Positions 3,520-23,384 of a DNA stretch of 32,000 nucleotides are shown here, piece by piece. Source of the DNA: Pseudodesulfovibrio mercurii. Its GTDB lineage: Bacteria; Desulfobacterota; Desulfovibrionia; Desulfovibrionales; Desulfovibrionaceae. Made by a program: the position numbers and the translations under genes. The stretch's first letter is position 1. Each line of letters begins with the position of its first letter. The notes below the pieces were generated by a model. That model was not told where the DNA came from, searched no databases, and saw only the letters and a program-made list of their open reading frames with translations. The stretch lies in assembly GCF_000189295.2 (NCBI RefSeq), contig NC_016803.1, positions 2,070,001 to 2,102,000 on the forward strand. Direction: 5' to 3'.

Positions 3520-6282
<2,763 letters not shown>

Positions 6283-7296: not shown

Positions 7297-7403
7297 CTCT
7301 TCAACGCAGCGCCCCGGACGCGCTCTTCATCAAAAGCAAGGCACACAGGCGCGCCCCAAAAAACGAATTTGCCTTTTCATCTGGTGGAGGCTAGACAGCC
7401 TCC

Positions 7404-7688: not shown

Positions 7689-7754
7689 TTCCGAACGAAC
7701 GTCATTCCTTGCCTCCCCGGCCCGTAAAAGGATTGGGAGAGTGGGTCGGCCGCG

Positions 7755-8078: not shown

Positions 8079-8109
8079 GTTCAGGGCCTCGGCGCGGGAT
8101 ATGGCCGGT

Positions 8110-9039
8110 TCAGGCCGCTTCTTCCGGAACAAGAACGAAACTCCCGCAGATGTCGTTGAAGGCGGACGGGTCCATGGGCGCGGTGCCCGTGGCCGTGACC
8201 GCCAGGAGGGCGTTGCCCTGGTCCGTGGTCCAGGCCCGGCCGCAGGTGCGAACCACCCGGCGCAGGGCCCGGCGCAGCAGGGAGGTTTTGACCTCGCCGC
8301 GCCAGACCAGGGAGCCCGGCCCGTTGTCCACCGGGACCCGGGCGGGCGGCCCGTGGGCCAGCCGCTCGCGGCACCAGTCCTCCAGGGTCGCGCCCCTGAG
8401 CAGGGCCGAGGCCGGAGCGAAGCGCTCGAAATCCAGGTGCGTGCCCGGCCCCTTGCCCACGGGCGCGCGCTCGGGCCGTTTGCCCGAGGCGGGCCGCCAC
8501 CAGGCCACCCGGTAGTGGCCGGGCCGGAAGGAAAAGGTGTCCAGCAGGAAGTCGGCGGGCACGCGCCCGGCCAGGCCGAACAGGGCCCAGGGCACGGTCT
8601 TGCCCGCCGTGTGGTCGCGCAGGGTGGCCAGGACCCCGGCGGCGACGGGCTCGTCGGCCTGGCTGCGGATGAAGAACTGGACCAGACAGGCCAGCCCGGT
8701 GCCGGGATGGTGCAGGGCCGCGCCCAGCCCCCGGCGGTCGTCCGCCCGCCACAGGAAGCTGCGGGCGCGCAGGCCGGACTCGGCCAGCCGGGCCACGGCG
8801 TCGGCCCAGGCGGCCGGGGTCTCGGCGTCGTCCACGCTCCGGACCACGGCCCCCTTGTTGCCCTTGGTCAACCGCTTGATATGCTTGTCGAAAGAGAAGG
8901 CACCGCGCACGCGGTTCCACTTCAGTTCGCAGACCGGGCCGAGTGTGTCGGCCAGCAGGAGCCCGTCACGCTCGACGGCCGTGGGCTCCCAGCCGGGAGG
9001 CGCGGCCAGACCGATACCGTTCCAGGCGATGGCGGGCAT
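8110..9039 (-). CDS. Hypothetical protein (309 aa), no family recognised
   Basis: Met72 of ORF 8110-9252 (MPAIAWNGIGLAAPPGWEPTAVERDG...) begins 2 nt after the stop of the upstream gene (TAGCCATG), which suggests operon coupling. Composition is protein-like. The 71 codons further upstream overlap the 9042-9647 gene. Confidence 0.6.
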   Translation of the reverse strand: MPAIAWNGIGLAAPPGWEPTAVERDGLLLADTLGPVCELKWNRVRGAFSFDKHIKRLTKGNKGAVVRSVDDAETPAAWADAVARLAESGLRARSFLWRADDRRGLGAALHHPGTGLACLVQFFIRSQADEPVAAGVLATLRDHTAGKTVPWALFGLAGRVPADFLLDTFSFRPGHYRVAWWRPASGKRPERAPVGKGPGTHLDFERFAPASALLRGATLEDWCRERLAHGPPARVPVDNGPGSLVWRGEVKTSLLRRALRRVVRTCGRAWTTDQGNALLAVTATGTAPMDPSAFNDICGSFVLVPEEAA

Positions 9040-9041
9040 GG

Positions 9042-9647
9042 CTAGTGCGGCACGTAGGCGTCCAGGGAGCGGACCTTGCTCATGCCCATCTTTTCCATGG
9101 GCTCCTCGTGCTCCGTCTTGAAGCAGGCGTACTCCTCGTCCATGTCCGTCTCCTGGGTCATCTTGATGGACACGCCGGGCCGCATCTCCTTGTCGCGGCT
9201 CCACATGAGCACCAATGAAACGCGCTGGCCCTTGCCGTTGGTGAAGAGCCACTCCCAGGCGATGACGTTCTTGAAGGCGTCGCCCAGGTACTTGTCCGGC
9301 TTGCCGAAGACGGCCTCGTAGCGGTCGTTGAGCCGGCTGAAGAAGTCCTGGCCGCGCTCATAAAACTTGAGCTTGATGCGCACCAGCCGCCCTTCGCTCT
9401 TGCAGTTGCCGAAGGCCAGGCTGCCGCCGCGCACGCCGGGCAGGGCACCCGGCTTGAGCAGGACTTCGGACAGGAACGGCGCGTCGGACACGGGGATGGC
9501 CCGTTCCATATGACAGTAATCCTCGTAGCGCTCCACCGACTCGCCCAGGGTGAACCCGGCGAGGGTGGTGGGGAAGCCCTCGCCCGCCAGGGCGGGTGTC
9601 GCGCACAGGGCCGTCAGGGTCACGATCAGGAGCAGTATTCTTCGCAT
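9042..9647 (-). CDS. Secreted/periplasmic hypothetical protein (201 aa) with N-terminal signal peptide
   Basis: MRRILLLIVTLTALCATPALA|GEG is a Sec-type signal with an AxA cleavage site. Lipoprotein status is doubtful because the lipobox is poor. It is first in the minus-strand three-gene unit. Confidence 0.7.
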   Translation of the reverse strand: MRRILLLIVTLTALCATPALAGEGFPTTLAGFTLGESVERYEDYCHMERAIPVSDAPFLSEVLLKPGALPGVRGGSLAFGNCKSEGRLVRIKLKFYERGQDFFSRLNDRYEAVFGKPDKYLGDAFKNVIAWEWLFTNGKGQRVSLVLMWSRDKEMRPGVSIKMTQETDMDEEYACFKTEHEEPMEKMGMSKVRSLDAYVPH

Positions 9648-9758: not shown

Positions 9759-11336
9759 ATGCGAGCTGAACCGGCCATGCCCGCATGGCGACCCGCTCTC
9801 TACTACGCACTGACCGTGGCCGGCGGCGCGGTCTACGGCGGCAAGGTCTGCGCCTACATGGCCCACCTGCCGACCTGGAAGCTCGGGCTGGTCATCCTCG
9901 GTCCCTTGGCCGTGGCCTGGCTGGTGCGCGGCAGCATCGAGCGCCGGGTGGTGGAGCGGGCCCGGCCCCTGCGCCGCGCCCTGCGCCAGTTCCAGATGGA
10001 GATGTCCCTGTTCCTGGCCGCCGGACTGGCCTCGGCGGCCATCCTGACCCTGGTCTACCACTACCCCTTCGTTCAGAGCGGGCTGATGCTGATCGTGGGC
10101 ATGTTCGCCGCGGGCCTGTTCGCCGGGCTGGACCTGGCCCTGGCCCGAGAGCGCCAGCTCATCCGCCGGGCGCTCGCGGGCGACGCCCTCTACACCCCGC
10201 CCGACCGGCCCAGCACCATGACCCGCAAGTTCACGGTCTTCGCCATCCTCATCCTGGTCCTGTCCACGGCCGTCATCCTCCTGGTTCTGGTCCGCAACAT
10301 GGGCTGGCTGGCCACCCAGGCCCTGAACCTCGACACCCTGGACATGGTCGGCCGCTCGATCCTGACGGAGGTCCTCATCGTCATGGGCTTCCTCATCGTC
10401 ATGGTCGCCAACCTGGTCATCTCCTACTCCCGGAACATGCGCATGATCTTCGAGAACCAGACCAGGGTCCTGGAAAACGTCAGCCGGGGCGACCTGTCGC
10501 ACCGCGTGCCCGTGCCCACCTCCGACGAGATGGGGGTCATCGCCGCGCACACCAACACCATGATCATGCGCCTGCGCGAAGGCATGCGCATGCGCGAGGG
10601 GCTCAGGATCGCCCAGGAGGTCCAACAGCACTTCCTGCCCAGGAAGCCCCCGCACATGCCGGGCCTGGACATCGCCGGGGTCAGCCTGTTCTCGGACGAG
10701 ACCGGCGGCGACTTCTACGACTTCATCGAGTGCGACCTGAACCATTGCGACCAGCTGGCCGTGGCCGTGGGCGACGTGTCCGGGCACGGCATCGGCGCGG
10801 CCCTGCTCATGACCGCGGGCCGGGCGGTCATCCGCCAGAACGCGGCCACGCCCGGCCCGGCCGCCGAGAACATCCGCCGGGCCAACCTGCACCTGGCCAG
10901 GGACATCGGCGACACCGGCCGGTTCATGACCCTGTTCTTCATGGTCATCGACCCGCTGACGAAAAGGATCACCTGGATCAACGCGGGCCACCCGCCGCCC
11001 CAGGTCTACGACCCGGCCATGGATGCCTTCGACGAGCTCAAGGGCGCGGACATCCCCCTGGGCGTGGAACCGGACTGGACGTACCACGAACAGGTCATGG
11101 ACCTGCCCGCGCCGGGCCGGATTCTGTGCATCTGCACGGACGGGGTCTGCGAGGCGCGCAACCGCGACGGGGCCATGTTCGGGCGCGAGCGCATCCGCGA
11201 GATCCTGCGCGACAACCGGGACCGCAGCGCGCGGGAGATCGTCGCCGCCCTCAGCGAGCGCGTCCTCGCATTCGCCGGGCCGGGGCGGCGCGAGGACGAC
11301 CTGACCCTGGTGGTGATCAAGGGCGCGCCCCGTTGA
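9759..11336 (+). CDS. Membrane-bound HAMP-domain PP2C/SpoIIE-family serine phosphatase
   Basis: About 230 aa of N-terminal hydrophobic segments with short loops are followed by a HAMP-like segment (VSRGDLSHRVPVPTSDEMGVIAAHTNTMIMRL). The PPM domain follows (GGDFYDF, VGDVSGHGIGAALLM, INAGHPPP, CTDGVCEA, EDDLTLVVIK). RBS GAGGGAAGG lies upstream of the ATG at 9759. Confidence 0.85.
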   Translation: MRAEPAMPAWRPALYYALTVAGGAVYGGKVCAYMAHLPTWKLGLVILGPLAVAWLVRGSIERRVVERARPLRRALRQFQMEMSLFLAAGLASAAILTLVYHYPFVQSGLMLIVGMFAAGLFAGLDLALARERQLIRRALAGDALYTPPDRPSTMTRKFTVFAILILVLSTAVILLVLVRNMGWLATQALNLDTLDMVGRSILTEVLIVMGFLIVMVANLVISYSRNMRMIFENQTRVLENVSRGDLSHRVPVPTSDEMGVIAAHTNTMIMRLREGMRMREGLRIAQEVQQHFLPRKPPHMPGLDIAGVSLFSDETGGDFYDFIECDLNHCDQLAVAVGDVSGHGIGAALLMTAGRAVIRQNAATPGPAAENIRRANLHLARDIGDTGRFMTLFFMVIDPLTKRITWINAGHPPPQVYDPAMDAFDELKGADIPLGVEPDWTYHEQVMDLPAPGRILCICTDGVCEARNRDGAMFGRERIREILRDNRDRSAREIVAALSERVLAFAGPGRREDDLTLVVIKGAPR

Positions 11337-11470
11337 CGGACGGGCCCGACGCCGTTTACGACAGGTGCGTGATTTTTGTACACTGATTCCTATTTCAGCT
11401 TGTTTCCGGCGGCCTGAATCGGTATGCTGAGAATGAACGAATCCAGCCAGTTCGAACAGAAAGGACATCA

Positions 11471-12130
11471 ATGAGCAAACCGGGACGACTCATCTCCCTG
11501 CCCTTCTCGAAATCCGTCGAGATCAGCTACAAGAGCCTGAAGGTCCGCTTCTTCCGCTCCATGATCACGGTTTCCAGCCTGGTCCTGGCCGTATCCTTCC
11601 TGAGCTTCGTCCTGGTCAACCTGGACATCGCCACGGGCATGCTCCTGCACGGCGGCAAGGAGGCGGCCAGGGCGCTCTCCCAGGCGGGCTACGACGTGGA
11701 CCTGGCCCAGGGGGCCGTGGCCATGTCGGCCAAGGAGCGCTGGATCGTCATCCTGTCCCTGCTGGTCTGCACCGTGGGCATCGTCAACGCCCAGCTCATG
11801 TCCGTGACCGAGCGGTTCTCGGAGATCGGGGTGATGAAGTGCCTGGGGGCCCTGGACTCCATGATCCTGCGCCTGTTCCTGCTGGAGGCGGGCATGCAGG
11901 GGCTGGCCGGGGCCTTTGCGGGCGCGGTGCTCGGCTGCCTGTTTTCCCTGCTGACCGGGGCCGTGCGCTTCGGTTTCGCGTCCCTTTCAAGCCTGCCGCC
12001 CGCGTCCGTGCTCGGCTCCGTGGGGCTGGCCACCCTGGCGGGCTGCGGCCTGAGCCTGCTCGGCGTGCTCTACCCGGCCTGGCTGGCGGCGCGCATGGAC
12101 CCCATCAAGGCCATCCGTGCGGAACATTGA
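11471..12130 (+). CDS. Short FtsX-family ABC permease (219 aa) with only ~40 aa of extracytoplasmic loop
   Basis: The N-terminus (KSLKVRFFRSMITVSSLVLAVSFLSF) is the typical MacB/FtsX TM1 lead-in. The FtsX core is IVNAQLMSVTERFSEIGVMKCLGALDSMILRLFLLEAGMQGL...YPAWLAARMDPIKAIR. RBS is AAAGGA. Confidence 0.85.
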   Translation: MSKPGRLISLPFSKSVEISYKSLKVRFFRSMITVSSLVLAVSFLSFVLVNLDIATGMLLHGGKEAARALSQAGYDVDLAQGAVAMSAKERWIVILSLLVCTVGIVNAQLMSVTERFSEIGVMKCLGALDSMILRLFLLEAGMQGLAGAFAGAVLGCLFSLLTGAVRFGFASLSSLPPASVLGSVGLATLAGCGLSLLGVLYPAWLAARMDPIKAIRAEH

Positions 12131-12139
12131 GGATAGATT

Positions 12140-12904
12140 ATGAGTGAAGGCAAACGCACCATCGTCCGCGTCATCGGCGTGAAGAAGACCTTCGTCATGG
12201 GCAAGGTCGAGCTCCAGGCCCTCAAGGGCGTGGACCTTGAGATATTCGCCGGGGAATACATCTCCATCATGGGCCCGTCGGGCTCGGGCAAGTCCACCCT
12301 GTTCAACATGATCGGCGGCCTGGACAAGCCCACCGAGGGCAAGGTCTTCATCGACGAGGTGGACATCTCCCAGCTGGACGCCTTCGAGCTGGCCTGGCTC
12401 CGCAACCGCAAGATCGGCTACATCTTCCAGACCTTCAACCTCATCCCGGTGATGACCGCGCTGGAAAACGTCACCCTGCCCATGACCTTTGCGGGCATGA
12501 ACGCGGACGACGCCCAGGACAAGGGCATCGAGCTGCTCAAGCTGGTGGGGCTGGGCGAGCGCTTCCAGCACAAGCCCCTGGAGCTGTCCGGCGGCCAGCA
12601 GCAGCGCGTGGCCGTGGCCCGGTCCCTGGCCAACGACCCGGCCATCGTCCTGGCCGACGAGCCCACCGGCAACCTGGACCTGTCCACGGGCGAGGAGATC
12701 ATCGAGCTGTTGCAGATGCTCTCCCAGGAGCGCGGGGTCACGGTCATCTCGGCCACCCACGACTACAAGATGCTCAACGTGTCCGACCGCGTGGTCTGGG
12801 TGCGCGACGGCCAGGTGGACCGCATCGAGCGGCGCGAGGAGCTGGACATCTCCATCGGCGGCATCGGCGAGAAGCTGACCGGCCACAGGGAACCCGGAGT
12901 CTAG
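12140..12904 (+). CDS. ABC transporter ATP-binding protein, MacB/LolD-type
   Basis: Walker A is GPSGSGKST, the signature is [15 protein letters not shown] and Walker B is [11 protein letters not shown]. It starts 9 nt after the preceding permease, with an AGGA RBS overlapping that stop. Confidence 0.95.
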
Positions 12905-12907
12905 CCC

Positions 12908-15900
12908 ATGACCCGGCGCGGCCCGCACATATTCACCGCCCTCCTGGCCCTGTTCCTGGTCGCGGCGGCCGCCTGTCCGGCCCTGGCCGACGGGGCGGAC
13001 TTCCTACGCCGGTTGAGCGAACTCGGCGACCGGTCGCCGGGCAGCCCGGGGGTGGCCAAGGCCGCCGACATGGTCGAGGCCGAGTTCAGGCGTCTGTTCC
13101 CGGACGGGACCCTGGGCCGCCAGTCCTTCCACCTGCCCGTGCAGGTCCAGGAGGGCGCGACCCTGACCGTGGCGGCCAGCGGAATGGTCGAGCCCCTGCG
13201 CCAGCTGCGGGCCAACGCCCTGTCGCCGGGCGCCGTGGCCCCGCCCGGCATCAACGGGCCGCTGCTCTACGCGGGCCGGGGCTACCTGACCGACTTCGAC
13301 GGCATGGCCGTGGAGGGGTCCCTGGTCCTCATGGACATGGACTCGGAAAAGAACTGGAACAACGCGGCCATGCTCGGTGCGCGCGGACTGATCTTCGTGG
13401 GCGAGGGCGGCGACGGCGGCGCGGCCCCCAGGCCCCGCTTCCACGCCAAGTTCGAGCTCACCCCGGTGGACTTTCCCATCTTCTGGCTCTCCCGCGAGCG
13501 GGCCGAGGCCCTGTTCGGCGCGGACCTCCTGACCCGGGGGCCCCACGAACTCGGCCGGGGCACGCTGACCTCCAAGGGCAAGTGGCGCAACGAGCGGCTC
13601 GAGAACGTCTACTGCCGCATCCCGGGCAGCGACCCCCAGCTGGCCAAGCAGACCGTCATCCTGGAGGCCTTCTACGATTCCACCGCCCTGGTGGAGGGGA
13701 CCTCGCCCGGCGCGGACGAGGGCGCGTCCATGGCCGCCCTCATGGACCTGGCCGAAGACCTGGCCGCGCACCGGCCCAAACGCTCGGTCCTGTTCCTGGC
13801 CACGGCGGGCAAGTCCTCGGCCCAGGCGGGCATGCGCGAATTCACCTGGGCCCTGGTGACCAAGGGCAAGGTCCTCAAGGCGCGGCGCGACGAACTCAAG
13901 GCGCTGGTCAAGGACACGAAGCGAACCCTGGCCCTGCTGCGCTCACCCGGACCGCTGGCCCCGGCCAACCTGGCGGACCCGGCGGACGCGGCCCTGCTCA
14001 AGAAGGCCCTCAAGGCCGTGGTCCGCAACCGCGAGGACGACATCACCGGCGAACTCATGCGCCTGCGCCTCCTGACCGGAGGGGAGGACGGCCCGTCCAT
14101 CAAAGGGGAGGCCGCCACCCAGCAGCGCATCCAGGCCCTGGCCGACGAGCGCATCAAGCTCAAGCGGCTGACCTGGATCAGCTCCACCGTGGGCGACTAC
14201 CCCCTGCCCGACGATGAGCGGGCGGTCCTGCAACGGTTCTTCCGGCCCGCCGAACAGCTCCAGGCGGCCATCCTGGCCGACGGCTCCGGCCAGCTCGACG
14301 ACATCGGCTCGGCCCGGTCCGTGCGCGAGGCCCTGGGCGAGACCGCCGTCGCGGCCCACGTCTCCCTGTACCTCTCGTCCCACGGCGACGGCCTGGGCGG
14401 GTTCGACCAGGGGTGGCTCATCGACCTCAAGCCCGACGTCAACCGGACCGGCTTCTTCCGGCCCCTGGACACGGTCATGAAGGGCGCGGTGGAGCGGCTG
14501 AAAACGACCGACCCCGAAACCGCGCACCTGTTCCGCGACACGCTCCGGCCCGGCAAGCGCGCCTGGCAGAGCTATCTGCCCGACCGGCCCAAGCTGGGCG
14601 GTGAGCCCATGGCCCTGGCCGGACTGCCCGGCTTCACCCTGGCCACGGTCCACGACGTGCGCCCGGCCTGGGGCACGCCTTACGACCGGCCCGGCCGCGT
14701 GAATTTCGGTTTTCTGGCCCGGCAGTCCCGGCTGGTCCGCAGCCTGGTCCGGGCCCTGGCCGACGAGCCCATCGCGGACGCGGGCAAGCGGGACAAGAAC
14801 AACTTCGTCACCGTGGAGGGCCGCGCCAACCTGCTGCGCAAGGGCGAGATCTTCCCGGACCGCCCCGGCACCGGCCTGGTCGTCCTGGCCTTCCAGTGGC
14901 AGACGCGCAACTACGGCATGGTCGACACCCAGGGCAACTTCCGCATCCCCGGCCTGGCGGGCAAGAAGGTCAGCTACCACAAGGCGGTCATCGAGGCCTT
15001 CAAGTTCAACGACGAGACCGGCCTGGCCGACTGGGCCATCGACAAGCCCAAGACCGGCAAGGACGCCTACCGCCTGAAGCTGGCCCGCGCGGTCCAGGCC
15101 ACGGACCTGATCCTGTTCGCCTGCACCCAGACCACCCTGTTCGACATGTTCGAGCCCAGGACCTTCAAGTACCTGTACAGGCCGACCCTCATCGACGGCC
15201 GCACCGAGGCCCCGCCCGTGAGCTACTGGTACAGCCGCCTGGACACCCGCTCGTCCACCTTGGGCACCCTGTTCCTGGAGCCCGACACCCCGGTCAAGCT
15301 GACCCTGTCCGACACGGTCCTGGACAAGAAGGTCCTGCTCCTGAACGCGGACAAGGCCCACCCGGAGGGGCTGGGCTTCATCGCCCGCCAGTGGCCGGTC
15401 ATTCCCCTGACCGAGTTCCGCGCGGCCCGGGACATGTGGTCCCTGCTCGGCCCGCGCATCGACAACCTCGAGGAAAAGGGCATCGTCAACGACCGCATCC
15501 GGCTGCTGCGCCGGGAGGGCGACGCCCAGCTGGCCCAGGCCGTGCAATACCGGCAGGAAATGCAATGGGACAAGTTCGTCGAGGCCTCGCGCGCCTCCCT
15601 GTCCAAGGCCAGCCGGGTTTACAACGACGTGGACAAGACCCAGCGCGACGTGCTCTTCGGCGTGCTCTTCTACGTGGCCCTGTTCGTGCCCTTCGCCTAC
15701 TGCATGGAGCGGCTGTTCTTCTCCTTCGTGGACATCAAGAAACGGATCGGGGCCTTCCTCGGCTTCCTGGTCCTGATAATCGGGATCATCTACCTGGTGC
15801 ACCCGGCCTTCCAACTGACCTATTCGCCCCTGGTGGTCATCCTGGCCTTCTTCATCCTGGCCTTGTCGCTTTTGGTCTCGCTGATCATCTTCTTCCGCTT

Positions 15901-17815
15901 CGAGCGCGAGATGGTCGAGCTGCAAAAGCGCTCGTCCCACGTCAAGCTCACCGGGATCAGCCCCATGGCCGCCTTCACCGCCGCCTTCGTGCTGGGCGTG
16001 GGCAACCTCAAGCGGCGGCCCGTGCGCACCTTCCTGACCTTCGCCACCTTGGTCATCCTGACCTTCACGATCATGAACTTCACCACGGTCAAGTCCGTGC
16101 GTCAGGCCGGGTGGGCCAAGTTCAGCGACCACGCCACCTATGACGGGCTCATGGTCAAGTACCTCAACTGGCAGGACATCCCGGTGGAGGCCCTGTCGGT
16201 CATGCACAACGCCTTCGCCGGCACCGGGGTGGTCGCCCCGCGCGTCTGGTACGACACCGGGTTCACCTCGGACAAGTCGCGCGCCCCGCTCATCCCGGTG
16301 GTCCGCGACGGGCGGGAGGCCCAGGGACGCGGCCTCATCGGCCTGTCCTGGCGGGAGCCGCAGGTCAGCGGGCTGGACCGCATCCTGGTCAAGGGCCGCT
16401 GGTTCAGGCAGGACGAGCGGGAGGCCATCCTCCTGCCCCAGCGCATGGCCGAGCGCATCGGGGCCGACCCGGACGATCCCGCGCGCAACAAGGTGGTCCT
16501 CTGGGGGGTGCCCTTCACCCTGGTGGGCGTGTTCAGCGACGACGGGTTGCGCGACCACCCGGACCTGGACGGCGAGCCCATCACGCCCATCGTCTTCCCC
16601 AACCAGGCGGCCACCCAGCTGTCCGAGGTGGAGGCCGAGGCCATCGAGAACGGCGACGACGTCATGGCCGCCGAGTCCCGCTACCAGCACATCCCCGGCT
16701 TCGAGACCGTCATCGTGCCCGCCCGGACCCTGCTCTCCCTGTCCGCCGGACGGCTCAAGGGCATCGCCGTGCACCCCGACACCGGCCACCGGGTGGGCGA
16801 CGACCTGGGCGACCGCTTCGGCCTGCTCCTGTTCAAGGGCGGTCCCGAGGGCACGTCCCTGTACTACGCCTCGGACGCGGTCAACTACTCGGGCGTGGCC
16901 AACATCCTGATTCCGCTGGCCATCTCCATTCTGATCGTGCTCAACACCATGATCGGCTCGGTCTACGAACGCCGCCCGGAGATCGCGGTCTACACCTCGG
17001 TCGGGCTGGCCCCGCCCCATGTGGCCTTCCTGTTCATCGCCGAATCCCTGGCCTTTGCGATCATCTCCGTGGTGGTCGGCTACATCCTGGCCCAGACGTC
17101 CAGCGCCTTCCTGGCCGGGACGCCCCTGTGGGCGGGCATGACCGCCAACTACTCGTCCACCGCTGGCGTGGCCGCCATGGTCCTGGTCATCGGCGTGGTC
17201 CTGATCTCGGCCATCTACCCGGCCCGGGTGGCGGCCAACATCGCCATCCCGGACGTGAACAGGTCCTGGACCATGCCCAAGGCCGAGGGCGACCGCATGA
17301 CCGTGATCCTGCCCTTCCTGATCAAGATGGACGAGATGCGCTCGGCGGGCGGATTCCTGCGCCAGTACTACCTGGCCCACCACGACGTGTCCCACGGGAC
17401 CTTCTGCACCGACGACATGCGCTGCAACTTCCTGGACCTGGAGCGGGAGGAGCTGGCCACCGGCCTGCTGACCGGCGCCGGCCGCGACATCCCCCTGCCC
17501 GACGACCTGTGCTTTTCCATGGACCTGCGCGTCTGGCTGGCGCCCTTCGACTTCGGCGTGCGCCAGAAGGTCAAGCTGGTCTTCTGCCCGTCGGAGGTCT
17601 ATACGGGCTTCCGGCAGATCAAGGTGCTCATCGACCGCGAGGCGGGCGAAGTCACCGCCTGGGAGAACCTGAACCGCAATTTCATCAACGACCTGCGCAA
17701 GCAGCTGCTGGCCTGGCGCTCCCTGGACAACGAGGCCGTGGACCACTACGCCGAGGACCTCGACGCCGAGGAACTGCGGCTCAAGGACGCGCAGGCAGGG
17801 GAGGACGCGGCATGA
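12908..17815 (+). CDS. Giant (1635 aa) FtsX-family permease fused to an N-terminal periplasmic PA/M28 peptidase-like region and a C-terminal cytoplasmic domain
   Basis: Signal peptide (aa 1-28, ALA|DG). PA-like segment at aa ~105-170. M28-like core (LENVYCRIPGSDP..ILEAFYDS..SPGADEGASMAALMDLAEDL..VLFLATAGKS). Three TM segments at aa ~915-997. MacB-type TM1 (RRPVRTFLTFATLVILTFTIMNF), a ~270-aa periplasmic domain, then the FtsX core at aa ~1330-1445 (SVYERRPEIAVYTSVGLAPPHVAFLFIAESL..IYPARVAANI). The ATG lies 3 nt after the ATPase stop. Confidence 0.85.
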   Translation: MTRRGPHIFTALLALFLVAAAACPALADGADFLRRLSELGDRSPGSPGVAKAADMVEAEFRRLFPDGTLGRQSFHLPVQVQEGATLTVAASGMVEPLRQLRANALSPGAVAPPGINGPLLYAGRGYLTDFDGMAVEGSLVLMDMDSEKNWNNAAMLGARGLIFVGEGGDGGAAPRPRFHAKFELTPVDFPIFWLSRERAEALFGADLLTRGPHELGRGTLTSKGKWRNERLENVYCRIPGSDPQLAKQTVILEAFYDSTALVEGTSPGADEGASMAALMDLAEDLAAHRPKRSVLFLATAGKSSAQAGMREFTWALVTKGKVLKARRDELKALVKDTKRTLALLRSPGPLAPANLADPADAALLKKALKAVVRNREDDITGELMRLRLLTGGEDGPSIKGEAATQQRIQALADERIKLKRLTWISSTVGDYPLPDDERAVLQRFFRPAEQLQAAILADGSGQLDDIGSARSVREALGETAVAAHVSLYLSSHGDGLGGFDQGWLIDLKPDVNRTGFFRPLDTVMKGAVERLKTTDPETAHLFRDTLRPGKRAWQSYLPDRPKLGGEPMALAGLPGFTLATVHDVRPAWGTPYDRPGRVNFGFLARQSRLVRSLVRALADEPIADAGKRDKNNFVTVEGRANLLRKGEIFPDRPGTGLVVLAFQWQTRNYGMVDTQGNFRIPGLAGKKVSYHKAVIEAFKFNDETGLADWAIDKPKTGKDAYRLKLARAVQATDLILFACTQTTLFDMFEPRTFKYLYRPTLIDGRTEAPPVSYWYSRLDTRSSTLGTLFLEPDTPVKLTLSDTVLDKKVLLLNADKAHPEGLGFIARQWPVIPLTEFRAARDMWSLLGPRIDNLEEKGIVNDRIRLLRREGDAQLAQAVQYRQEMQWDKFVEASRASLSKASRVYNDVDKTQRDVLFGVLFYVALFVPFAYCMERLFFSFVDIKKRIGAFLGFLVLIIGIIYLVHPAFQLTYSPLVVILAFFILALSLLVSLIIFFRFEREMVELQKRSSHVKLTGISPMAAFTAAFVLGVGNLKRRPVRTFLTFATLVILTFTIMNFTTVKSVRQAGWAKFSDHATYDGLMVKYLNWQDIPVEALSVMHNAFAGTGVVAPRVWYDTGFTSDKSRAPLIPVVRDGREAQGRGLIGLSWREPQVSGLDRILVKGRWFRQDEREAILLPQRMAERIGADPDDPARNKVVLWGVPFTLVGVFSDDGLRDHPDLDGEPITPIVFPNQAATQLSEVEAEAIENGDDVMAAESRYQHIPGFETVIVPARTLLSLSAGRLKGIAVHPDTGHRVGDDLGDRFGLLLFKGGPEGTSLYYASDAVNYSGVANILIPLAISILIVLNTMIGSVYERRPEIAVYTSVGLAPPHVAFLFIAESLAFAIISVVVGYILAQTSSAFLAGTPLWAGMTANYSSTAGVAAMVLVIGVVLISAIYPARVAANIAIPDVNRSWTMPKAEGDRMTVILPFLIKMDEMRSAGGFLRQYYLAHHDVSHGTFCTDDMRCNFLDLEREELATGLLTGAGRDIPLPDDLCFSMDLRVWLAPFDFGVRQKVKLVFCPSEVYTGFRQIKVLIDREAGEVTAWENLNRNFINDLRKQLLAWRSLDNEAVDHYAEDLDAEELRLKDAQAGEDAA

Positions 17816-19824
17816 ACGGACGACTGAGGCTGCGCGCGCTGCTCACCGGGCTCCTCCTCGGCCTGGTTTTGTGCGTCTACACCCCGTACAACAACGCGGT
17901 CCTGGGCGGCGTGCCGCTCGGCGGCGGCCACTTCCCCCTGGCCCCGTTCTTCATCCTGGCCTGGCTCTTCATCCTGGACGCCGGGGTCTCCCGCCTGACC
18001 AAGCGGCCGCCCGTGCTCTCCGGGGTGGAACTGCTGGTCGTCTGGCTGATGATGACCCTGTTCACGGCCGTGGGCTACGCCGGGCTGACCGAGACCTTCT
18101 TCGTCAACATCACCGCGCCCCAGCGCTACGCCAAGGACGCCTACCGCTGGACCGAGGTCCTCGGCCCGCTGCTGCCCGAATCATGGTTCCCGCACTCGGC
18201 CGAGGCCGTTCGCCAGCTCTTCCAGGGGCTCAAGGGCGGCCGGGACATGTCCGCGCTCCAGGTCCTGTCGGCCATCCCCTGGGGCGTCTGGCTGCCGCCG
18301 CTGATCGTCTGGTCCCTGTTCATCCTGGGGGCCTACTTCGTCATGGTCTGCCTGACCGCCCTGTTCGGCCGCCAGTGGGTGGTCAACGAGCGGGTCAACT
18401 TCCCCCTGCTGCGCGTGCCCCTGCTCATGGGCGAGGCCCTGGACCAGCGGCGGCTCTCCTCCTGGTGGACAGACCGCTTCCTGCTCACCGGCCTGATCCT
18501 GGCCGGGGCCCTGCACCTGCTGAACGGCCTGCACTTCTACTATCCGTCCGTGCCCCAGCTGCCCACGCTGGTCCTGGCCGGATCCTATTTCCCCAAGTTC
18601 GGGCTGTTCTCCGGGTTCTACAAGCTGAAGCTCTACTTCATCCCGGCCTTTGTCGGCTTCGCCTTCCTGACCACCCGGCAGATATCCTTCTCCATGTGGT
18701 TCTTCCACCTGGCCGCCGGGCTGCTCTTCGGTCTGCTCTACGTGCTCGGCTGGCAGCTGCCCGAGGCCGCCCTGGGGACCACGCTGGGCCCGGACCTGGC
18801 CCGGCCCGAGGGCGCGCAGACCATCGGGGCCTACGCCGTGTTCTTCATCTTCCTGCTCTGGCTGGCCCGGCATCACCTGAAGGAGACCGTGGGCTGCCTG
18901 ATCCGGCCCTTCAGCAAGGGCGGAGAGCTCCTGCACAAGACCGGCTTCAGCGCGCCGCCCAAGGAGTGGACGCCGCCCGCCTGGCCCCTGATCGGGCTCG
19001 TCCTGGGCATGGCCTTCCTGATCGCCTGGTGCCGCTGGTTCGGCCTGCCCTGGGCCGGGGCCCTGCTCCTGCCGTTCGCCTTCATGCTGGTCATGCTCGT
19101 GGTCAGCCGGCTGGTCTGCCAGGGCGGCCTGCCCTACTTCACCCTGACCGCCGCGCCCTCGGACGGGCTCATGGGGCTGTTCGGCACGGGCGTGCTCGGC
19201 TCGGCGGGCGTGGCCGCCACCGCGATCATGCAGAAGGTTCTGTTCCTGGACGTGCGCGAGGCCGTGGCCCCGACCCTGTTCCACGGGGCCAAGATCCGCG
19301 AGTCCGCCGCGCCGGAGCGGCGCAGCCTGGTCCTCCTGGCCATCGGCATCTCCCTGGTCCTGGCCCTGGCCGCGGCCTTCGCGACCATGCTCTACCTGGG
19401 CCACCGCTACGGCCTGCGCGAGCTGCGCCTGGAGTGGGCCACCCAGACCGTGCTGGCCAACTTCGAGAACGCCCAGCGGCTGGTGGACCAGCCCACCGGC
19501 CCGAACGAGTGGCTGCTGACCTACGCGGGCTTCGGGGCCCTGGTCATGTTCGTGCTCATCTACTGCTACTACAAGCTGCCCTGGTGGCCCCTGCACCCGC
19601 TCGGCTACCTGGCGGCCTATTCCGCGGGCATGAAGATCCTGTGGTGCCCGTTCTTCCTGGGCTGGCTGTGCAACCACCTGGTCCTGCACTACGGGGGCAC
19701 CCGGCTCTACAACAAGGTCCGCTTCCTGTTCATCGGCCTGATCCTCGGCGATTTCCTCATGGGCGGCGTGTACGCCGTCATCGGCATGTTCTCCAACCAG
19801 GCGTACAGCGTCTTTCCCCTGTAG
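17812..19824 (+). CDS. Polytopic integral membrane protein (670 aa), uncharacterised, OPT-superfamily-like
   Basis: Its ATG overlaps the stop of the preceding gene (ATGA at 17812-17815). Many hydrophobic segments are present. Motifs are NERVNFPL (nt 18388-18408) and a C-terminal LHYGGTRLYNKVRFLFIGLILGDFLMGG. This is the in-frame internal Met of ORF 17128-19824. Confidence 0.8.
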   Translation: MNGRLRLRALLTGLLLGLVLCVYTPYNNAVLGGVPLGGGHFPLAPFFILAWLFILDAGVSRLTKRPPVLSGVELLVVWLMMTLFTAVGYAGLTETFFVNITAPQRYAKDAYRWTEVLGPLLPESWFPHSAEAVRQLFQGLKGGRDMSALQVLSAIPWGVWLPPLIVWSLFILGAYFVMVCLTALFGRQWVVNERVNFPLLRVPLLMGEALDQRRLSSWWTDRFLLTGLILAGALHLLNGLHFYYPSVPQLPTLVLAGSYFPKFGLFSGFYKLKLYFIPAFVGFAFLTTRQISFSMWFFHLAAGLLFGLLYVLGWQLPEAALGTTLGPDLARPEGAQTIGAYAVFFIFLLWLARHHLKETVGCLIRPFSKGGELLHKTGFSAPPKEWTPPAWPLIGLVLGMAFLIAWCRWFGLPWAGALLLPFAFMLVMLVVSRLVCQGGLPYFTLTAAPSDGLMGLFGTGVLGSAGVAATAIMQKVLFLDVREAVAPTLFHGAKIRESAAPERRSLVLLAIGISLVLALAAAFATMLYLGHRYGLRELRLEWATQTVLANFENAQRLVDQPTGPNEWLLTYAGFGALVMFVLIYCYYKLPWWPLHPLGYLAAYSAGMKILWCPFFLGWLCNHLVLHYGGTRLYNKVRFLFIGLILGDFLMGGVYAVIGMFSNQAYSVFPL

Positions 19825-19836
19825 ACGGAAGTGTCC

Positions 19837-20619
19837 ATGCGACTGCTCCTCAAGATACTCCCCCTCTCCCTCATCCTGCTCCTCGCCGAGGGCGCGGGGG
19901 CCATGCCGGGCCAGGCCGGGGAGGCACCCGCACCCGTCAAACTGGTCATGTTCATCGCCCACGCCGACGTGCCGCCCTATTACCTGGAAACGGCCGACGG
20001 ACAGGGGAGGGGCATCCTCATGGACGTGCTCCGGGCCGTGGCCGGACCGCTGGGCTACGAGGCCGTCCCCCGGCGGCTGCCCGACAAGCGGGGCTGGCAC
20101 ATGCTCGAATACGGCGGGGTGGACGTCTACGCCACGGCCAGGGAGTGGATTCCCGAGCCGGACCGCTTCCTGTGGACCGGGACCTTCATGCCCAACGAGG
20201 ACGTGCTCCTCTACCGCGCGGGCAGCGCCTTCGCCTACGACGGGCCCGAATCCCTCCACGGCATGCGCGTGGCGGGCATCAAGGGGTTCGTCTACCCGGC
20301 CCTGGAATCCCACTTCGGGCCGGGCGGGATCATCCGCCTGGACACGACCACCCCCGAGGCCCTGCTGGAGCTGCTGGCCCTGGGCCGGGCCGACGCCGTG
20401 CTGGTCAACCGCACGGAGATATTGTGGATGTTCAGAAACCGCGAAGGCCTTGAGCCCCATCGCTTCCGCATGGACGAGACCCCGGTGGGCCGGGCCCACT
20501 ACCGCTTCGTCTTTCCAAAGGGGCGGGGCTGGGAACCCGTCATCGACCTGTTCAACCGCCGTCTTCGGGAGATGAAGCGGGACGGCAGCCTCAAGGCCAT
20601 ACTCGACCGATACCGTTAA
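19837..20619 (+). CDS. Periplasmic substrate-binding protein, family 3 (amino-acid-type SBP fold)
   Basis: Signal peptide is MRLLLKILPLSLILLLAEGAGA. The body is SBP_bac_3-like (PPYY..G.GILMDVL, GRADAVLVNRTE, LREMKRDGSLKAILDRY). ATG 19837 has GGAAG 6 nt upstream. The track ORF starts at the GTG at 19831. Confidence 0.8.
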   Translation: MRLLLKILPLSLILLLAEGAGAMPGQAGEAPAPVKLVMFIAHADVPPYYLETADGQGRGILMDVLRAVAGPLGYEAVPRRLPDKRGWHMLEYGGVDVYATAREWIPEPDRFLWTGTFMPNEDVLLYRAGSAFAYDGPESLHGMRVAGIKGFVYPALESHFGPGGIIRLDTTTPEALLELLALGRADAVLVNRTEILWMFRNREGLEPHRFRMDETPVGRAHYRFVFPKGRGWEPVIDLFNRRLREMKRDGSLKAILDRYR

Positions 20620-20643
20620 GCCGGAGACGCCGGAGCGAGACTC

Positions 20644-22599
20644 ATGTACGACGACAAGGAACTGCAAGAATACCGGGACCTGCTGAAACCGCCCGACAAG
20701 TTCGAGGAGGGGTTCGACTGGAAGACCATCGTGGGAGCCGTGTTCATCGGCTTCCTGATGATGCCCGGCTCCATGTACCTCCAGCTGGTCATCGGCCAGG
20801 GCATCGGCCCGGCCGCCCGCTGGGTGACCATCATCCTCTTCGCCGAGATCGCCAAGCGCTCCTACACCCACTTGAAGGAACAGGAGATATTCCTGCTCTA
20901 CTACATGGCGGGCGCGGCCCTGGCCTCACCCTTCCAGGGGCTTCTCTGGAACCAGTACCTGGTCCAGTCCGACGCGGCGCGCATGCTCGGCCTGACCGAG
21001 TTCATCCCCCACTGGGTGGCCCCGGCCCTGGGCTCCGGCTCCTACCTGGAGCGGACCTTCATGCACCGCGACTGGCTCATCCCCATCCTGCTGCTCATCG
21101 GGGCGCAGCTGGTCCAGCGCATCGACCACTTCGGCCTGGGCTACTCCCTCTACCGGCTCACCTCGGACGTGGAGAAGCTGCCCTTCCCCATGGCCCCGGT
21201 TGGCGCGCTCGGCACCATGGCCCTGGCCGAGTCCACCGAGGACAAGAAGACCGGCTGGAAGTGGCGGGTCTTCTCCATCGGCGGGGTCATCGGCCTGGCC
21301 TTCGGCTTCTTCTACGTGCTCCTGCCCGCCCTGTCCGGGCTGCTCTTCACCGAGCCCATCCGTCTCATCCCCATTCCGTGGATCGAGCTGACCCAGTACA
21401 CCGAGAACGCCCTGCCCGCCGTGGCCACGGGCATCCAGTTCGACCTCGGCCTGGTCTTCCTCGGCATGGTCCTGCCGTTCTGGGCCGTCATCGGCGGCCT
21501 GGTCGGCCTGATCGTGACCATCGTGGCCAACCCGATCCTCTACGCCCACGGCATCCTGCACCGCTGGCATCCCGGCATGGCCACCGTGGAGACGGTCTTC
21601 GCCAACAATTTCGACTTCTACATGAGCTTCGGCATCGGGCTGGGCCTGGCCATCGGCGCGGTGGGCGTCTACCATGTGGTCCGGTCCTTCCGGAGCGCCA
21701 GCGGCGGGCTCGACTTCTCGGCCCTGTTCAACCCGCCCCAGGGACGCGGGGACATCAACTTCTGGGTGTCCATCGGCATCTACGTCTTCTCCACCCTGTG
21801 CTACATCGGGTTCTGCCTGTGGCTGGTGCCGAGCTTCCCGTGGATCTTCTTCGTCCTCTACGGCTTTATCTACACCCCGGTCATCTCGTACATCTCCGCG
21901 CGCATGGAGGGCGTGGCCGGGCAGTTCGTGGCCCTGCCCATGGTCCGCGAGTTCTCGTTCATCGCCGGGGCCAAGTTCTTCGGCTACCACGGGCTCGAGA
22001 TATGGTACGCGCCCATCCCGTTCCACAACTACGGCGAGGCCACGGTCCAGTTCCGCCAGATCGAGCTGACCGGCACCAGCCTGCGCGGGATCATCAAGGC
22101 CGAGATCCTGGTCTTCCCCATCGTCATGGTCTCCTCCCTGTTCTTCTCCCAGTTCCTCTGGCAACTGGCGCCCATCCCCTCGCCCGAGTACCCCTTCGCC
22201 CAGGAGCTGTGGCACCTCCAGGCCCTGAACACCCTGCTCCTCCAGACCTCCACCCTGGACGGCAACTCCCTGTTCTTCGAAGCGTTGTCCGGCCCGGTGG
22301 TCCTGTCCGGCCTGGGCCTCGGGCTGATCCTCTACTCGGTCCTCAACGTCCTGGGACTGCCCGTGCTCCTGGTCTACGGCGTGGTCCGGGGGCTCGGCCA
22401 GTCCACGCCCCACGGCATGCTCCTCGAGGTCATCGGCGGCCTGCTCGGGCGCTTCTATTTCCTGAAAAAATACGGGACCAAGTGGCGCCACTACGCCCCG
22501 GTCCTGCTGGCCGGCTTCTCCTGCGGCATGGGCCTGACCGGCATGTTCGCCATGGGCTGCACATTGATCATGAAGTCCCTCGGCCGACTGGCTTACTAG
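20644..22599 (+). CDS. Polytopic integral membrane protein (651 aa), uncharacterised, OPT-superfamily-like; distant paralogue of 17812-19824
   Basis: Many TM segments are present. The EKLPFPM motif (nt 21172-21192) parallels ERVNFPL in the 670-aa protein. The C-terminal LKKYGTKWRHYAPVLLAGFSCGMGLTG parallels its HYGGTRLY...GLILGDFLMGG. A GGAG RBS is present. Confidence 0.8.
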   Translation: MYDDKELQEYRDLLKPPDKFEEGFDWKTIVGAVFIGFLMMPGSMYLQLVIGQGIGPAARWVTIILFAEIAKRSYTHLKEQEIFLLYYMAGAALASPFQGLLWNQYLVQSDAARMLGLTEFIPHWVAPALGSGSYLERTFMHRDWLIPILLLIGAQLVQRIDHFGLGYSLYRLTSDVEKLPFPMAPVGALGTMALAESTEDKKTGWKWRVFSIGGVIGLAFGFFYVLLPALSGLLFTEPIRLIPIPWIELTQYTENALPAVATGIQFDLGLVFLGMVLPFWAVIGGLVGLIVTIVANPILYAHGILHRWHPGMATVETVFANNFDFYMSFGIGLGLAIGAVGVYHVVRSFRSASGGLDFSALFNPPQGRGDINFWVSIGIYVFSTLCYIGFCLWLVPSFPWIFFVLYGFIYTPVISYISARMEGVAGQFVALPMVREFSFIAGAKFFGYHGLEIWYAPIPFHNYGEATVQFRQIELTGTSLRGIIKAEILVFPIVMVSSLFFSQFLWQLAPIPSPEYPFAQELWHLQALNTLLLQTSTLDGNSLFFEALSGPVVLSGLGLGLILYSVLNVLGLPVLLVYGVVRGLGQSTPHGMLLEVIGGLLGRFYFLKKYGTKWRHYAPVLLAGFSCGMGLTGMFAMGCTLIMKSLGRLAY

Positions 22600-22690: not shown

Positions 22691-23130
22691 CCCCACGCCC
22701 CTTGGAGCGATTCGGGTGCCCCCGGCACCCGACCGCGGTTCTTTGTCCCGCACCCCGGCACGCCCCCCCGCGTCCCGCCGCACCTCTTGCCCACGCCGAA
22801 CCAGCCCTGGAGGGGGCGCGTAGAAGCCGACCGCGAAGGGCGGCGGCTCTTGTCCCGCCGAGACTCGGTCTTCCCCCAAAGGGGCCATTCCGCTCCGGGA
22901 GCAGGCCGATACCTTTCCTTGGATGGAGCCGCCCCGAGCGGATCGGATTCTTGCGCCCCCTCCCCGGGCGGCCGCGCCCCCTCCAGGGCCCTTTTTTTCG
23001 TCCATTTTTTTGGGCCAGCAAAAAAATGGACCCCGCCGGGAGGGCATGGAGGCTGAGGCGGTGCAACCGCCTCACTGGCTCTCGGAGGGAGGAGCGCAGC
23101 TCCCTCCCGGCTCTCCGCGCCGATGGCGCG
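22691..23130. repeat. Copy B of the ~430-440 bp hairpin-rich non-coding repeat (direct repeat of 6851-7296)
   Basis: It shares the exact blocks listed for copy A. It contains a perfect hairpin TCCATTTTTTT-GGGCCAGC-AAAAAAATGGA (23001-23030) and GAGGCGGT-GCA-ACCGCCTC (23055-23073). It is bracketed by near-identical agcgaggagccgcaggctcc modules at 22614-22634 and 23138-23157. Confidence 0.8.
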
Positions 23131-23175
23131 TTCCCGGAGCGAGGAGCCGCAGGCTCCAACGCGGCTCTCCGCGAA

Positions 23176-23227
23176 GCAGGCGCGGTCTTCAGTGGCGCGG
23201 TGCAGGCGCGGTCTTCAGCGGCGCGGC
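23176..23227. repeat. Two tandem 26-bp units (gcaggcgcggtcttcagYggcgcggY)
   Basis: Read directly: 23176-23201 and 23202-23227 differ at 2 positions. Confidence 0.75.
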
Positions 23228-23384
23228 TGCAAGCCGCAATCCCCCCCCCACGCCCGCCAGAGGCAAAATAACGCCAACCCCCGACAACTTGACGCCATTT
23301 TGCAAAGGGGCCTTGTTCTTTCCCTTGCGAGCGGGTAATTTGTGCCCGGCATAACGGTACAAGGAACCCAATACGGAGATCAGA

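Follow-up and report, generated by a model that had tools for sequence, protein, structure and literature searches.

A predicted type VII ABC unit with a degenerate peptidase ectodomain, encoded together with two OPT-fold membrane proteins in Pseudodesulfovibrio mercurii and other bacteria

A six-gene unit predicted to encode an ATP-binding cassette (ABC) system together with two large polytopic proteins was analysed in Pseudodesulfovibrio mercurii, a mercury-methylating bacterium. The DNA examined is a window of 32,000 nucleotides (nt), and all coordinates are positions in this window. The genes, g1 to g6, lie on the + strand between 11471 and 22599 and encode, in order, a 219-amino acid (aa) stub FtsX permease (g1, 11471–12130), a 254-aa ABC ATPase of the LolD/DevA/MacB/FtsE clade (g2, 12140–12904), a 1635-aa giant FtsX protein (g3, 12908–17815), a 670-aa polytopic DUF6785+DUF6784 protein of predicted OPT/YSL fold (g4, 17812–19824), a 260-aa secreted family-3 solute-binding protein (g5, 19837–20619) and a 651-aa polytopic protein that appears to be a divergent member of the OPT superfamily (g6, 20644–22599). 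A P. mercurii protein 100% identical to g3 is annotated only as ‘protein of unknown function DUF214’. A preliminary description of this DNA had proposed six closely spaced genes on one strand, and all of the open reading frames (ORFs) were found as given there, with spacings of 9, 3, −4, 12 and 24 nt; the 12 nt between g4 and g5 assume that g5 starts at ATG 19837, GTG 19831 being also possible. Each of the six is judged to be a real gene, because each has either a Pfam match or hundreds of conserved homologues. Profile searches, which the same description had suggested, matched g1 to FtsX, g2 to ABC_tran, g3 to FtsX and PA, g4 to DUF6785 and DUF6784 and g5 to SBP_bac_3; g6 had no Pfam match.

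That the genes form one compact unit was borne out by the tight gaps and by the overlap of the g3 stop and g4 start codons (ATGA, 17812–17815). Terminator-like sites are not in excess, 6 being seen in the operon region against 6.9 expected in shuffled sequence. A promoter and terminator scan of this region gave nothing beyond the shuffled expectation, and an Rfam scan gave no match within the operon. A weak candidate sigma-70-like promoter, TTGTTT-N17-TATGCT (11400–11428, + strand), had been read from the sequence. The motif is present, and both hexamers and their spacing are kept in the sister species P. karagichevae, which lends it mild support; it agrees with the sigma-70 consensus at only 7/12 positions, falls below the threshold of the promoter scan and is plausible but, taken alone, no better than chance.

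The first three genes encode what appears to be an asymmetric ABC engine. In a transmembrane (TM) helix scan g1, which matches Pfam FtsX with E 4.2e-16, has four TM helices with only about 40 residues from TM1 to TM2 and is without an ectodomain; these 40 residues stand at the position of the periplasmic core (Porter/Sabre, MacB_PCD) domain, which g1 lacks. The ATPase g2 matches Pfam ABC_tran (E 4e-34) and, among NCBIfam models, LolD (1.6e-68), DevA (6.5e-63) and MacB (2.3e-62) as well as YbbA and FtsE, all under the equivalog cut-offs. Its Walker A, signature, Walker B and H-loop motifs are intact, at residues 45, 149, 171 and 205. g1 and g3 are the only two FtsX-domain proteins of the set. 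The earlier proposal of an asymmetric FtsX pair served by a single LolD/MacB-type ATPase was thus supported by the Pfam and NCBIfam matches, the TM scan and the intact ATPase motifs. By its permease and ATPase domains g1-g2-g3 is classed as a type VII (MacB/FtsX-type) ABC system.

The second FtsX protein, g3, is unusual in its size and layout. The hydropathy profile shows, past a signal/anchor helix, about 890 residues free of hydrophobic segments until residue ~915. The approximate layout is a signal/anchor (8–26), an outer domain with PA and degenerate M28 regions (27–914), three extra, highly conserved TM helices (915–994), a MacB-type TM1 (1038–1056), a putative periplasmic core domain (1057–1332), FtsX TM2–4 (1333–1436) and a conserved cytoplasmic tail (1437–1635). 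The MacB-type unit therefore consists of TM1, an outer domain of about 275 residues and TM2–4, and is followed by a C-terminal tail of about 190 residues. In the family alignment the three extra TM helices and the tail stand out as nearly invariant or conserved blocks. On its own g3 matches Pfam FtsX (4.6e-9) and, weakly, PA (0.0039) and nothing else, whereas among 21 members of its family FtsX is matched by all 21, Peptidase_M28 by 15, PA by 13 and MacB_PCD by 12; the P. mercurii protein has no MacB_PCD match at E ≤ 0.1. A profile of the family searched against the PDB retrieved the M28/PA aminopeptidases 2ek8 (3e-10) and YwaD (6hc6, 1.3e-7) and also MacB (3e-8). Two g3 homologues give weak Pfam Nicastrin matches, and a Poribacteria homologue gives a faint LysM match.

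The M28 motifs were then read from an alignment of the family with the active M28/PA aminopeptidases 2ek8 and 6hc6, which gave a motif table for 22 sequences. The first zinc-binding His is replaced by Phe255 in g3 and by Phe, Tyr or Pro across the table. The catalytic/ligand Glu-Glu pair has become Gly301 followed by Lys or His in 22/22 sequences. At the position of the last zinc-binding His there is Gly589 in g3 and Gly in 20 of the 22, with Lys and Thr in the remaining two. The bridging Asp is largely kept (Asp270 in g3, Glu in a distant clade). The losses extend to a clade only 25–30% identical to g3. Around the former active site Tyr256, Pro267-Gly-Ala, Trp588, Thr590-Pro and Asp593 are invariant or nearly so. 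Since all 22 sequences have lost three of the catalytic or zinc-binding residues, the M28 domain of g3 is taken to be a conserved pseudo-enzyme and not a working peptidase, and it is most simply read as a binding module. Of the peptidase-like periplasmic module described earlier, the large M28/PA-like ectodomain stands, and the peptidase activity does not: an active-peptidase reading of g3 was rejected because of the lost catalytic and zinc-binding motifs.

The fold of g4 and g6 had to be approached indirectly. g4 matches Pfam DUF6785 (9.8e-145) and DUF6784 (5.3e-33), and a literature search on these two families found no paper mentioning either. g6 alone has no sequence match in Pfam, NCBIfam or the PDB, and neither g4 nor g6 matches the PDB by single sequence or by profile or reaches the Pfam OPT model directly. 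An exhaustive HMMER search gave 1004 cluster representatives related to g6, and 19 of 42 aligned members of its family match Pfam OPT, the best at 1.3e-17. An AlphaFold model of g6 (predicted local distance difference test score, pLDDT, 90.3) compared with the PDB by Foldseek matched the barley transporter YS1 (7wsr/7wst) with E 3.8e-11 and a TM-score of 0.63–0.70. For g4 (pLDDT 81.7) YS1 was again the only significant match (7wsr/7wst, E 4.3e-8, TM-score 0.60–0.67). The next-best matches of both had E > 0.01 and TM-scores below 0.2; identity to YS1 is 13–14%. BLASTP finds no similarity between g4 and g6; an hhalign comparison of the two families, however, covers 563 columns, end to end, with E 2e-4 and a probability of 45%. 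A 696-aa g4-type protein of a distant clade matches DUF6785 (1.3e-24), OPT (5.8e-11) and DUF6784 (5.2e-9) together. Because of the fold match to YS1 only, the g4–g6 alignment and this three-family protein, DUF6785/DUF6784 is placed in the OPT superfamily as a divergent branch, a placement by fold and transitive profile evidence, not by direct Pfam matches. The same evidence upheld the earlier view of g4 and g6 as OPT-like, distantly paralogous polytopic proteins. Some g6 homologues, of 860–1100 aa, carry an insertion of 270–450 residues after the position equal to g6 residue ~542 (P0122, P0126, P0147 from Planctomycetota, and P0130; loci L092–L095). It contains Reg_prop-type beta-propeller repeats in some and PDZ domains in P0130, and looks like a ligand- or partner-binding module grafted on one loop of the OPT fold.

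The conservation of the gene set was examined next. With one genome taken per species, relatives of g3 occur in at least 585 genomes, of which the best 80 are nearly all labelled as Desulfobacterota-type (Desulfovibrionales, Desulfobacterales, Desulfarculales and Syntrophobacterales). Synteny was analysed in 45 Desulfobacterota loci with enough flanking DNA. g1, g2 and g3 are present in 45/45, g1 always 5′ of g2; g4 and g6 are present in 42/45 and are absent jointly from the other three. The order g1-g2-g3-g4-g6 is collinear across these loci, and the set recurs in Planctomycetota and partly in Poribacteria. An analysis of such neighbourhood conservation had been suggested in the preliminary description. 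In many loci the common order is a GT1/28-like gene, two GT4 genes, a histidine phosphatase, a second GT1/28-like gene, a gene for a 279-aa protein, g1-g2-g3-g4-g6 and then genes homologous to three upstream genes of P. mercurii, tA, tB and tC (below), after which STAS, HATPase_c_2 and cNMP-binding genes follow tC on the opposite strand. A block of glycosyltransferase, CE4 and phosphatase genes stands beside the core in roughly 60% of loci. The 279-aa neighbour belongs to the DUF2334/polysaccharide deacetylase families (19/21 members, Pfam), and a PDB profile search with it gave no match; a CE4 deacetylase of this type (u279) is found in 25/45 loci, and loci without it often hold a Polysacc_deac_1 gene in its place. 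Among the glycosyltransferases, which are of generic kinds, the GT4s are similar to EpsE, BshA and MshA and the rest to MurG or macrolide glycosyltransferases. No peptidase or amino-acid metabolism gene is conserved near the system in the Desulfobacterota loci.

The distribution of g5 is quite different from that of the other five genes. Its product has a signal-like helix and matches Pfam SBP_bac_3 (E 2.8e-8), and the gene is present in 2/45 loci, those of P. mercurii and P. karagichevae only. In the latter the gap between g4 and g6 holds two tandem SBP_bac_3 copies (L005, 16992–17723 and 17885–18559), 70% and 54% identical to g5. From this pattern g5 is taken as a recent lineage-specific insertion and not as a core part of the machine. 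No type I/II importer permease for g5 was found among the window ORFs scanned, and a classical binding-protein importer was rejected because there is no importer permease and the g5 gene is a recent insertion. The operon had been thought to be coupled to peptide or amino-acid uptake. As g5 is lineage-specific, the amino-acid uptake link has no conserved basis, and the neighbours that are conserved encode glycosyltransferases, a CE4 deacetylase, a histidine phosphatase and partner-switching regulators; the claim was not supported.

Nor is the unit confined to 11471–22599, as had been supposed: two conserved partners, tB and tC, lie divergently upstream, between 7755 and 9039. They form with tA a trio on the minus strand, just upstream of g1–g6. 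tA (9042–9647) encodes a 201-aa secreted protein of unknown family, 34% identical to the product of the gene right after g6 in a Desulfobacterales metagenome-assembled genome (MAG); it is found in 18/45 loci and is an accessory limited to Desulfobacterota. tB (8110–9039) encodes a protein of about 309 aa without signal peptide or TM helix, also of unknown family, whose homologues in other loci are encoded after tA or g6. PDB profile searches with tA and tB were without match. With a hidden Markov model (HMM), tB was found at a Planctomycetota locus (1.6e-29) and at a Poribacteria locus (3.2e-44). tC (7755–8132) encodes a small PqqD-like protein, of the peptide-binding RRE type, that matches Pfam PqqD with 4e-13; the matches to the NCBIfam lasso/PQQ PqqD models are weak, far below cut-offs. 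tB and tC occur in the same 28/45 loci, and homologues of tC adjoin the system in Planctomycetota and Poribacteria too. The PqqD domain of tC suggests that a peptide ligand may be handled in the cytoplasm.

Between the trio and g1, directly 5′ of the latter, lies a + strand gene (9759–11336) for a membrane PP2C phosphatase of MASE10-HAMP-SpoIIE architecture (Pfam SpoIIE 1.1e-45, MASE10 2e-31, and HAMP; weak SiaA-like match). It stands beside the operon only in Pseudodesulfovibrio (2/45 loci) and is likely to be a regulator of it; a literature search on MASE10 found nothing relevant. Elsewhere STAS (16/45), HATPase_c_2 (15/45) and cNMP-binding genes adjoin the system. Different parts of the partner-switching pathway appear to have been recruited beside the system in different lineages.

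Beyond Desulfobacterota the conserved set consists of seven families, g1, g2, g3, g4, g6, tB and the PqqD-like tC. A Planctomycetota MAG (L095) has all seven in a permuted order: DUF6785, a g3-like gene (1846 aa), a propeller-inserted g6-like gene, tB, PqqD, a small FtsX and the ATPase. A second locus (L096) has five of the seven, in the order g3-like (2333 aa), g6-like, tB, PqqD and ATPase; the cluster of its g6-type protein includes Candidatus Poribacteria proteins. The homologies at both loci were confirmed by HMM and phmmer searches. A 58-aa ORF lies between the g3-like and g6-like genes of L096 (9809–9985), and small ORFs such as this could be candidates for a cargo or precursor peptide of the PqqD-like protein. 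In L092 and L093 (GC 0.60) a g3-like gene is followed directly by a g6-like gene with a Reg_prop insertion. In L085, L087 and L089–L091 (GC 0.45–0.48) g3-like, OPT-like and DUF6785/OPT-like genes stand amid sulfatase, ROK and sugar-isomerase-type genes. P0393, the 90%-identity cluster member for the L085 clade, is labelled by NCBI as from a Candidatus Brockarchaeota MAG; if the binning is right, the module also occurs in archaea, which are without an outer membrane. A g3 gene adjoins a g6-type gene in every clade examined, at 25–50% identity and in permuted order, and this adjacency is the strongest evidence that the two would act jointly. A homologue search with one distant g3-like fragment gave a single protein, which turned out to belong to the usual family and to be interrupted by a gap in the scaffold.

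The P. mercurii locus is bracketed by a direct repeat of about 420 bp. Its two non-coding copies, in the same orientation and 87% identical, lie after uvrA (left copy, 6856–7274, + strand) and 92 nt past the g6 stop codon (right copy, 22691–23107, + strand), and enclose a 15.4-kb block of a DUF4911 gene, tC, tB, tA, the SpoIIE phosphatase gene and g1–g6. Partial copies are present in L008 and, in the opposite orientation, in P. karagichevae (L005, ~3630–3908); a further match, of 46 nt, is at 30599–30649 of the window. By way of the repeat pair the block could be deleted or duplicated, or the repeats could be a trace of its relocation in this lineage. Each copy holds an A/T-rich 12-bp hairpin (7167–7198 and 23000–23031), and that of the right copy could be a terminator. 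ORFs at 6704–7795 and 22702–23271 were judged spurious because they run through this repeated non-coding element. The small DUF4911 gene (7404–7688, + strand, Pfam E 6e-19) is convergent with tC and has 84% identity in P. karagichevae. Elsewhere in the window, on the minus strand at 3282–3356, Rfam RF03167 (68.9 bits, gathering threshold 59) identifies a c-di-GMP-I riboswitch 63 nt 5′ of an HD_5/HD gene (2200–3219, minus strand), which suggests c-di-GMP control of a possible HD-GYP-type phosphodiesterase. A 6S RNA (Rfam RF00013, 95.8 bits) is found at 25324–25507 (+ strand), just 5′ of the gene for RNase Y (25697–27253).

The architecture of the system as described above is held with high confidence, and it is probable, judging from gene order, that the ABC unit and the OPT-fold proteins are functionally coupled. 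Type VII ABC systems act on periplasmic partners or cargo, not in transmembrane transport (PMC12646458; for MacB and DevBCA, PMC5985334 and PMC6161253), and MacB-type systems handle secreted peptides and glycolipids (PMC5985334, PMC6161253). In the mechanism proposed here g1 and g3 would form an asymmetric LolC/LolE-like heterodimer on a dimer of g2, and ATP binding and hydrolysis would be transmitted across the membrane, by type VII mechanotransmission, so that the pseudo-peptidase ectodomain moves. For this part of the proposal the g1–g3/g2 mechanotransmission is inferred from type VII reviews and structures (PMC5985334, PMC7668044, PMC12646458). Cargo would not be carried via the TM helices of g1 and g3 themselves. 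Instead the g3 ectodomain, as a non-catalytic binding or gating module like nicastrin and EnvC, would work on the outer face of the g4/g6 OPT-fold pair, a step suggested by synteny, and this pair would be the path through the cytoplasmic membrane. The extra TM helices and C-terminal tail of g3 would be likely docking sites for g4/g6 and for tB/tC.

The cargo is the weakest step. It would be made in the cytoplasm, would contain a peptide and in many Desulfobacterota also sugar, and would be exported or delivered to the surface. The PqqD-like tC would present it from inside, and in genomes with GT4, GT1/28-like, CE4 and phosphatase genes nearby their products would modify it; g5 would be a late lineage-specific accessory, and regulation would come from the SpoIIE phosphatase or, in other genomes, from the STAS/anti-sigma kinase pair. 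On the side of export are the peptide-binding PqqD fold of tC, the lack of signal peptides in tB and tC, the nucleotide-sugar glycosyltransferases, deacetylase and phosphatase close by in other loci, and the precedent of MacB-type systems cited above. Export of peptide-containing or glycosylated cargo, taken by itself, is possible but doubtful. The combined statement, by which the operon would supply the core, in the membrane, of a conserved multi-protein machine with this mechanism and this direction, is put forward tentatively, with somewhat less than even confidence.

Several observations weigh against this proposal. Every characterised OPT member imports (PMC3061005), which favours uptake over export. 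Neither a precursor-peptide gene nor a typical PqqD/RRE modifying enzyme (radical SAM, lasso B2/C, YcaO) was identified in the window or the listed neighbourhoods, small ORFs not having been systematically searched. The glycosyltransferase block is absent from the P. mercurii window, and the sulfatase, ROK and AP_endonuc_2 neighbours in the distant L085-type clade look catabolic, not biosynthetic. Three Desulfobacterota loci (L026, L029 and L037) have g1-g2-g3 without g4 or g6 within the available downstream sequence of at least 8 kb; they represent split loci or else a paralogous system whose partner is a different one. The available contig sequence of the L085-type (archaeal-labelled) and L092/L093 clades contains no small FtsX or ATPase gene; as these two clades are without such genes nearby, the ATPase linkage is not universal in synteny.

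An alternative is a machine for uptake, in which the pseudo-peptidase/PA ectodomain would capture an external oligopeptide, glycopeptide, oligosaccharide or metal chelate and ATP would drive its hand-over to OPT-fold importers working by cation symport. The characterised OPT members are all cation-coupled importers (PMC3061005) and YS1 is the sole structural match of g4 and g6; the sulfatase, ROK kinase/regulator and sugar-isomerase-like genes of the distant clade, the Reg_prop propeller and PDZ loop insertions of g6 homologues, which are typical ligand-binding modules, and the solute-binding protein inserted in P. mercurii all agree with it. A type VII ABC system that supplies an importer is not known, however, the binding protein occurs in merely two of the 45 loci, and the signal-less PqqD-like/tB pair and the glycosyltransferase/deacetylase block of Desulfobacterota fit uptake poorly, so that this explanation is considered rather unlikely. 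The ABC unit might instead be an FtsEX-like regulator, its ATPase switching either the degenerate M28 domain of g3 or a partner bound in the periplasm, for example tA, so as to activate an envelope-remodelling enzyme, with the OPT-fold proteins recovering the fragments. There is precedent in FtsEX-EnvC with its dead LytM domain (PMC7668044) and in YbbAP, which works with a periplasmic hydrolase (PMC12646458), and the M28 domain of g3, dead yet conserved, the secreted tA encoded beside the system in Desulfobacterota and even the faint LysM match of the Poribacteria homologue are in keeping with such a role. But the system has no conserved hydrolase gene beside it, tA is found in just 18/45 loci and was undetected in the Planctomycetota and Poribacteria loci, and the PqqD-like/tB pair is left without a role; a regulator of this kind is unlikely.

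An ATP-driven periplasmic peptidase that frees peptides or amino acids for uptake by two permeases and a binding protein would make use of the M28/PA similarity, the OPT-fold proteins and SBP_bac_3. With three catalytic or zinc positions replaced in 22/22 sequences this model is largely refuted, the binding protein being moreover a recent insertion and the neighbourhood holding no conserved peptidase or amino-acid metabolism genes, and it is very unlikely. The loci with g1-g2-g3 but without g4/g6, and the clades that have g3 and g6 without a nearby ATPase gene, might also be taken to mean that an ABC unit and OPT-type transporters that have nothing to do with it merely share an operon. This is most improbable: g3 stands beside a g6-type gene in every clade examined despite identities of 25–50% and permuted gene order, g4 and g6 are lost jointly, and the stop codon of g3 overlaps the start of g4.

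If the proposed export mechanism is set in general terms, a new class of envelope machine comes into view, in which a type VII mechanotransducer would be permanently coupled to OPT/YSL-fold proteins, ATP hydrolysis would gate or drive passage via this other fold, the dead aminopeptidase would be a cargo receptor and a ribosomal or glycosylated peptide would be brought to it from the cytoplasm by the PqqD-like protein. Such a class is conceivable, more doubtful than not. If it exists, it would be an undescribed route of peptide or glycoconjugate secretion in Desulfobacterota, Planctomycetota, Poribacteria and possibly some archaea. The understanding of type VII ABC systems rests on a few cases, MacB, LolCDE, FtsEX, BceAB and YbbAP, all of which use ATP hydrolysis to set a periplasmic module in motion. 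The present variant, linked to a PqqD-like protein and two proteins of OPT fold and distributed over at least 585 species genomes, would extend them by a type of partner so far undescribed. It would also point to a first cellular setting for OPT-like proteins of prokaryotes, Pfam DUF6785 and DUF6784 being now assigned to this fold on the evidence above, and the g3 ectodomain would be the bacterial equivalent of a dead M28 ectodomain in the manner of nicastrin. As P. mercurii ND132 is a genetically tractable model of mercury methylation, the proposal is directly testable.

The system was finally compared with those already known. A full-text literature search found no description of this gene set, in agreement with the earlier statement that no characterised system of such composition could be named; a paper on the G20 methylome mentions only the division gene ftsX. 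LolCDE also has two unlike FtsX permeases and one LolD-clade ATPase, and the best NCBIfam matches of g2 and g1 are LolD and LolC/E. Orthology with LolCDE was rejected, since the scores are far below the equivalog cut-offs (g1, 54 bits against 362; g2, 231 against 308) and g3 has no Lol match. Here, moreover, one permease is without an ectodomain, and the other is enlarged by about 900 outer residues, three more TM helices and a tail in the cytoplasm; there is no LolA/LolB-like partner, and Lol has no known OPT-fold or PqqD-like partners. With MacAB-TolC and DevBCA-HgdD the system shares the MacB-type four-TM unit with a putative periplasmic core in g3 (MacB_PCD matches in 12/21 family members) and the match of g2 to DevA. 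DevBCA is required for the heterocyst glycolipid layer (PMC6161253), and this role parallels the glycosyltransferase neighbourhood of the present system in other genomes. In the present case, however, the ATPase is a separate protein and the giant pseudo-peptidase ectodomain takes the periplasmic side. Neither a HlyD-type adaptor nor an OEP outer-membrane factor was found in the five neighbourhoods with Pfam listings or among the scanned window ORFs, and a tripartite efflux pump was rejected for want of them.

FtsEX-EnvC and YbbAP-TesA are alike in being type VII units that work via a periplasmic module (PMC12646458). FtsEX controls amidases via EnvC, whose LytM domain is catalytically dead (PMC7668044), a dead metallopeptidase domain as in the g3 ectodomain. 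In g3, however, the dead domain is of the M28 and not the M23 family and is fused to the permease, no hydrolase is conserved and two transporter-fold proteins are present. Orthology with FtsEX was also rejected, the scores being far below the FtsX and FtsE equivalog cut-offs (g1, 30 bits against 255; g2, 202 against 265). The OPT/YSL transporters, barley YS1 and the fungal and plant OPTs, resemble g4 and g6 in fold. The characterised members are all cation-coupled importers of peptides, glutathione or metal chelates, and none of the prokaryotic OPT-like proteins has so far been functionally characterised (PMC3061005). Known OPTs act alone as cation symporters, whereas g4 and g6 differ from each other and are linked, as a pair, to an ABC unit; large propeller or PDZ loop insertions are found in some of their relatives.

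Two further comparisons concern single features. In nicastrin, nicalin and the transferrin receptor the ectodomain of a membrane complex is likewise an inactive M28/PA scaffold, used for binding or gatekeeping; these proteins are eukaryotic and without an ABC unit, and their likeness to g3 is in domain use only. In BceAB-BceS an FtsX-type permease is stably associated with an integral membrane protein of another kind, but there the partner is a histidine kinase, not a transporter fold, and BceB has its ten TM helices in one chain. Set beside all of these, the parts of the system are familiar; what is undescribed is the conserved combination of an asymmetric pair of FtsX permeases with a pseudo-M28 ectodomain, two proteins of OPT fold and a PqqD-like pair.

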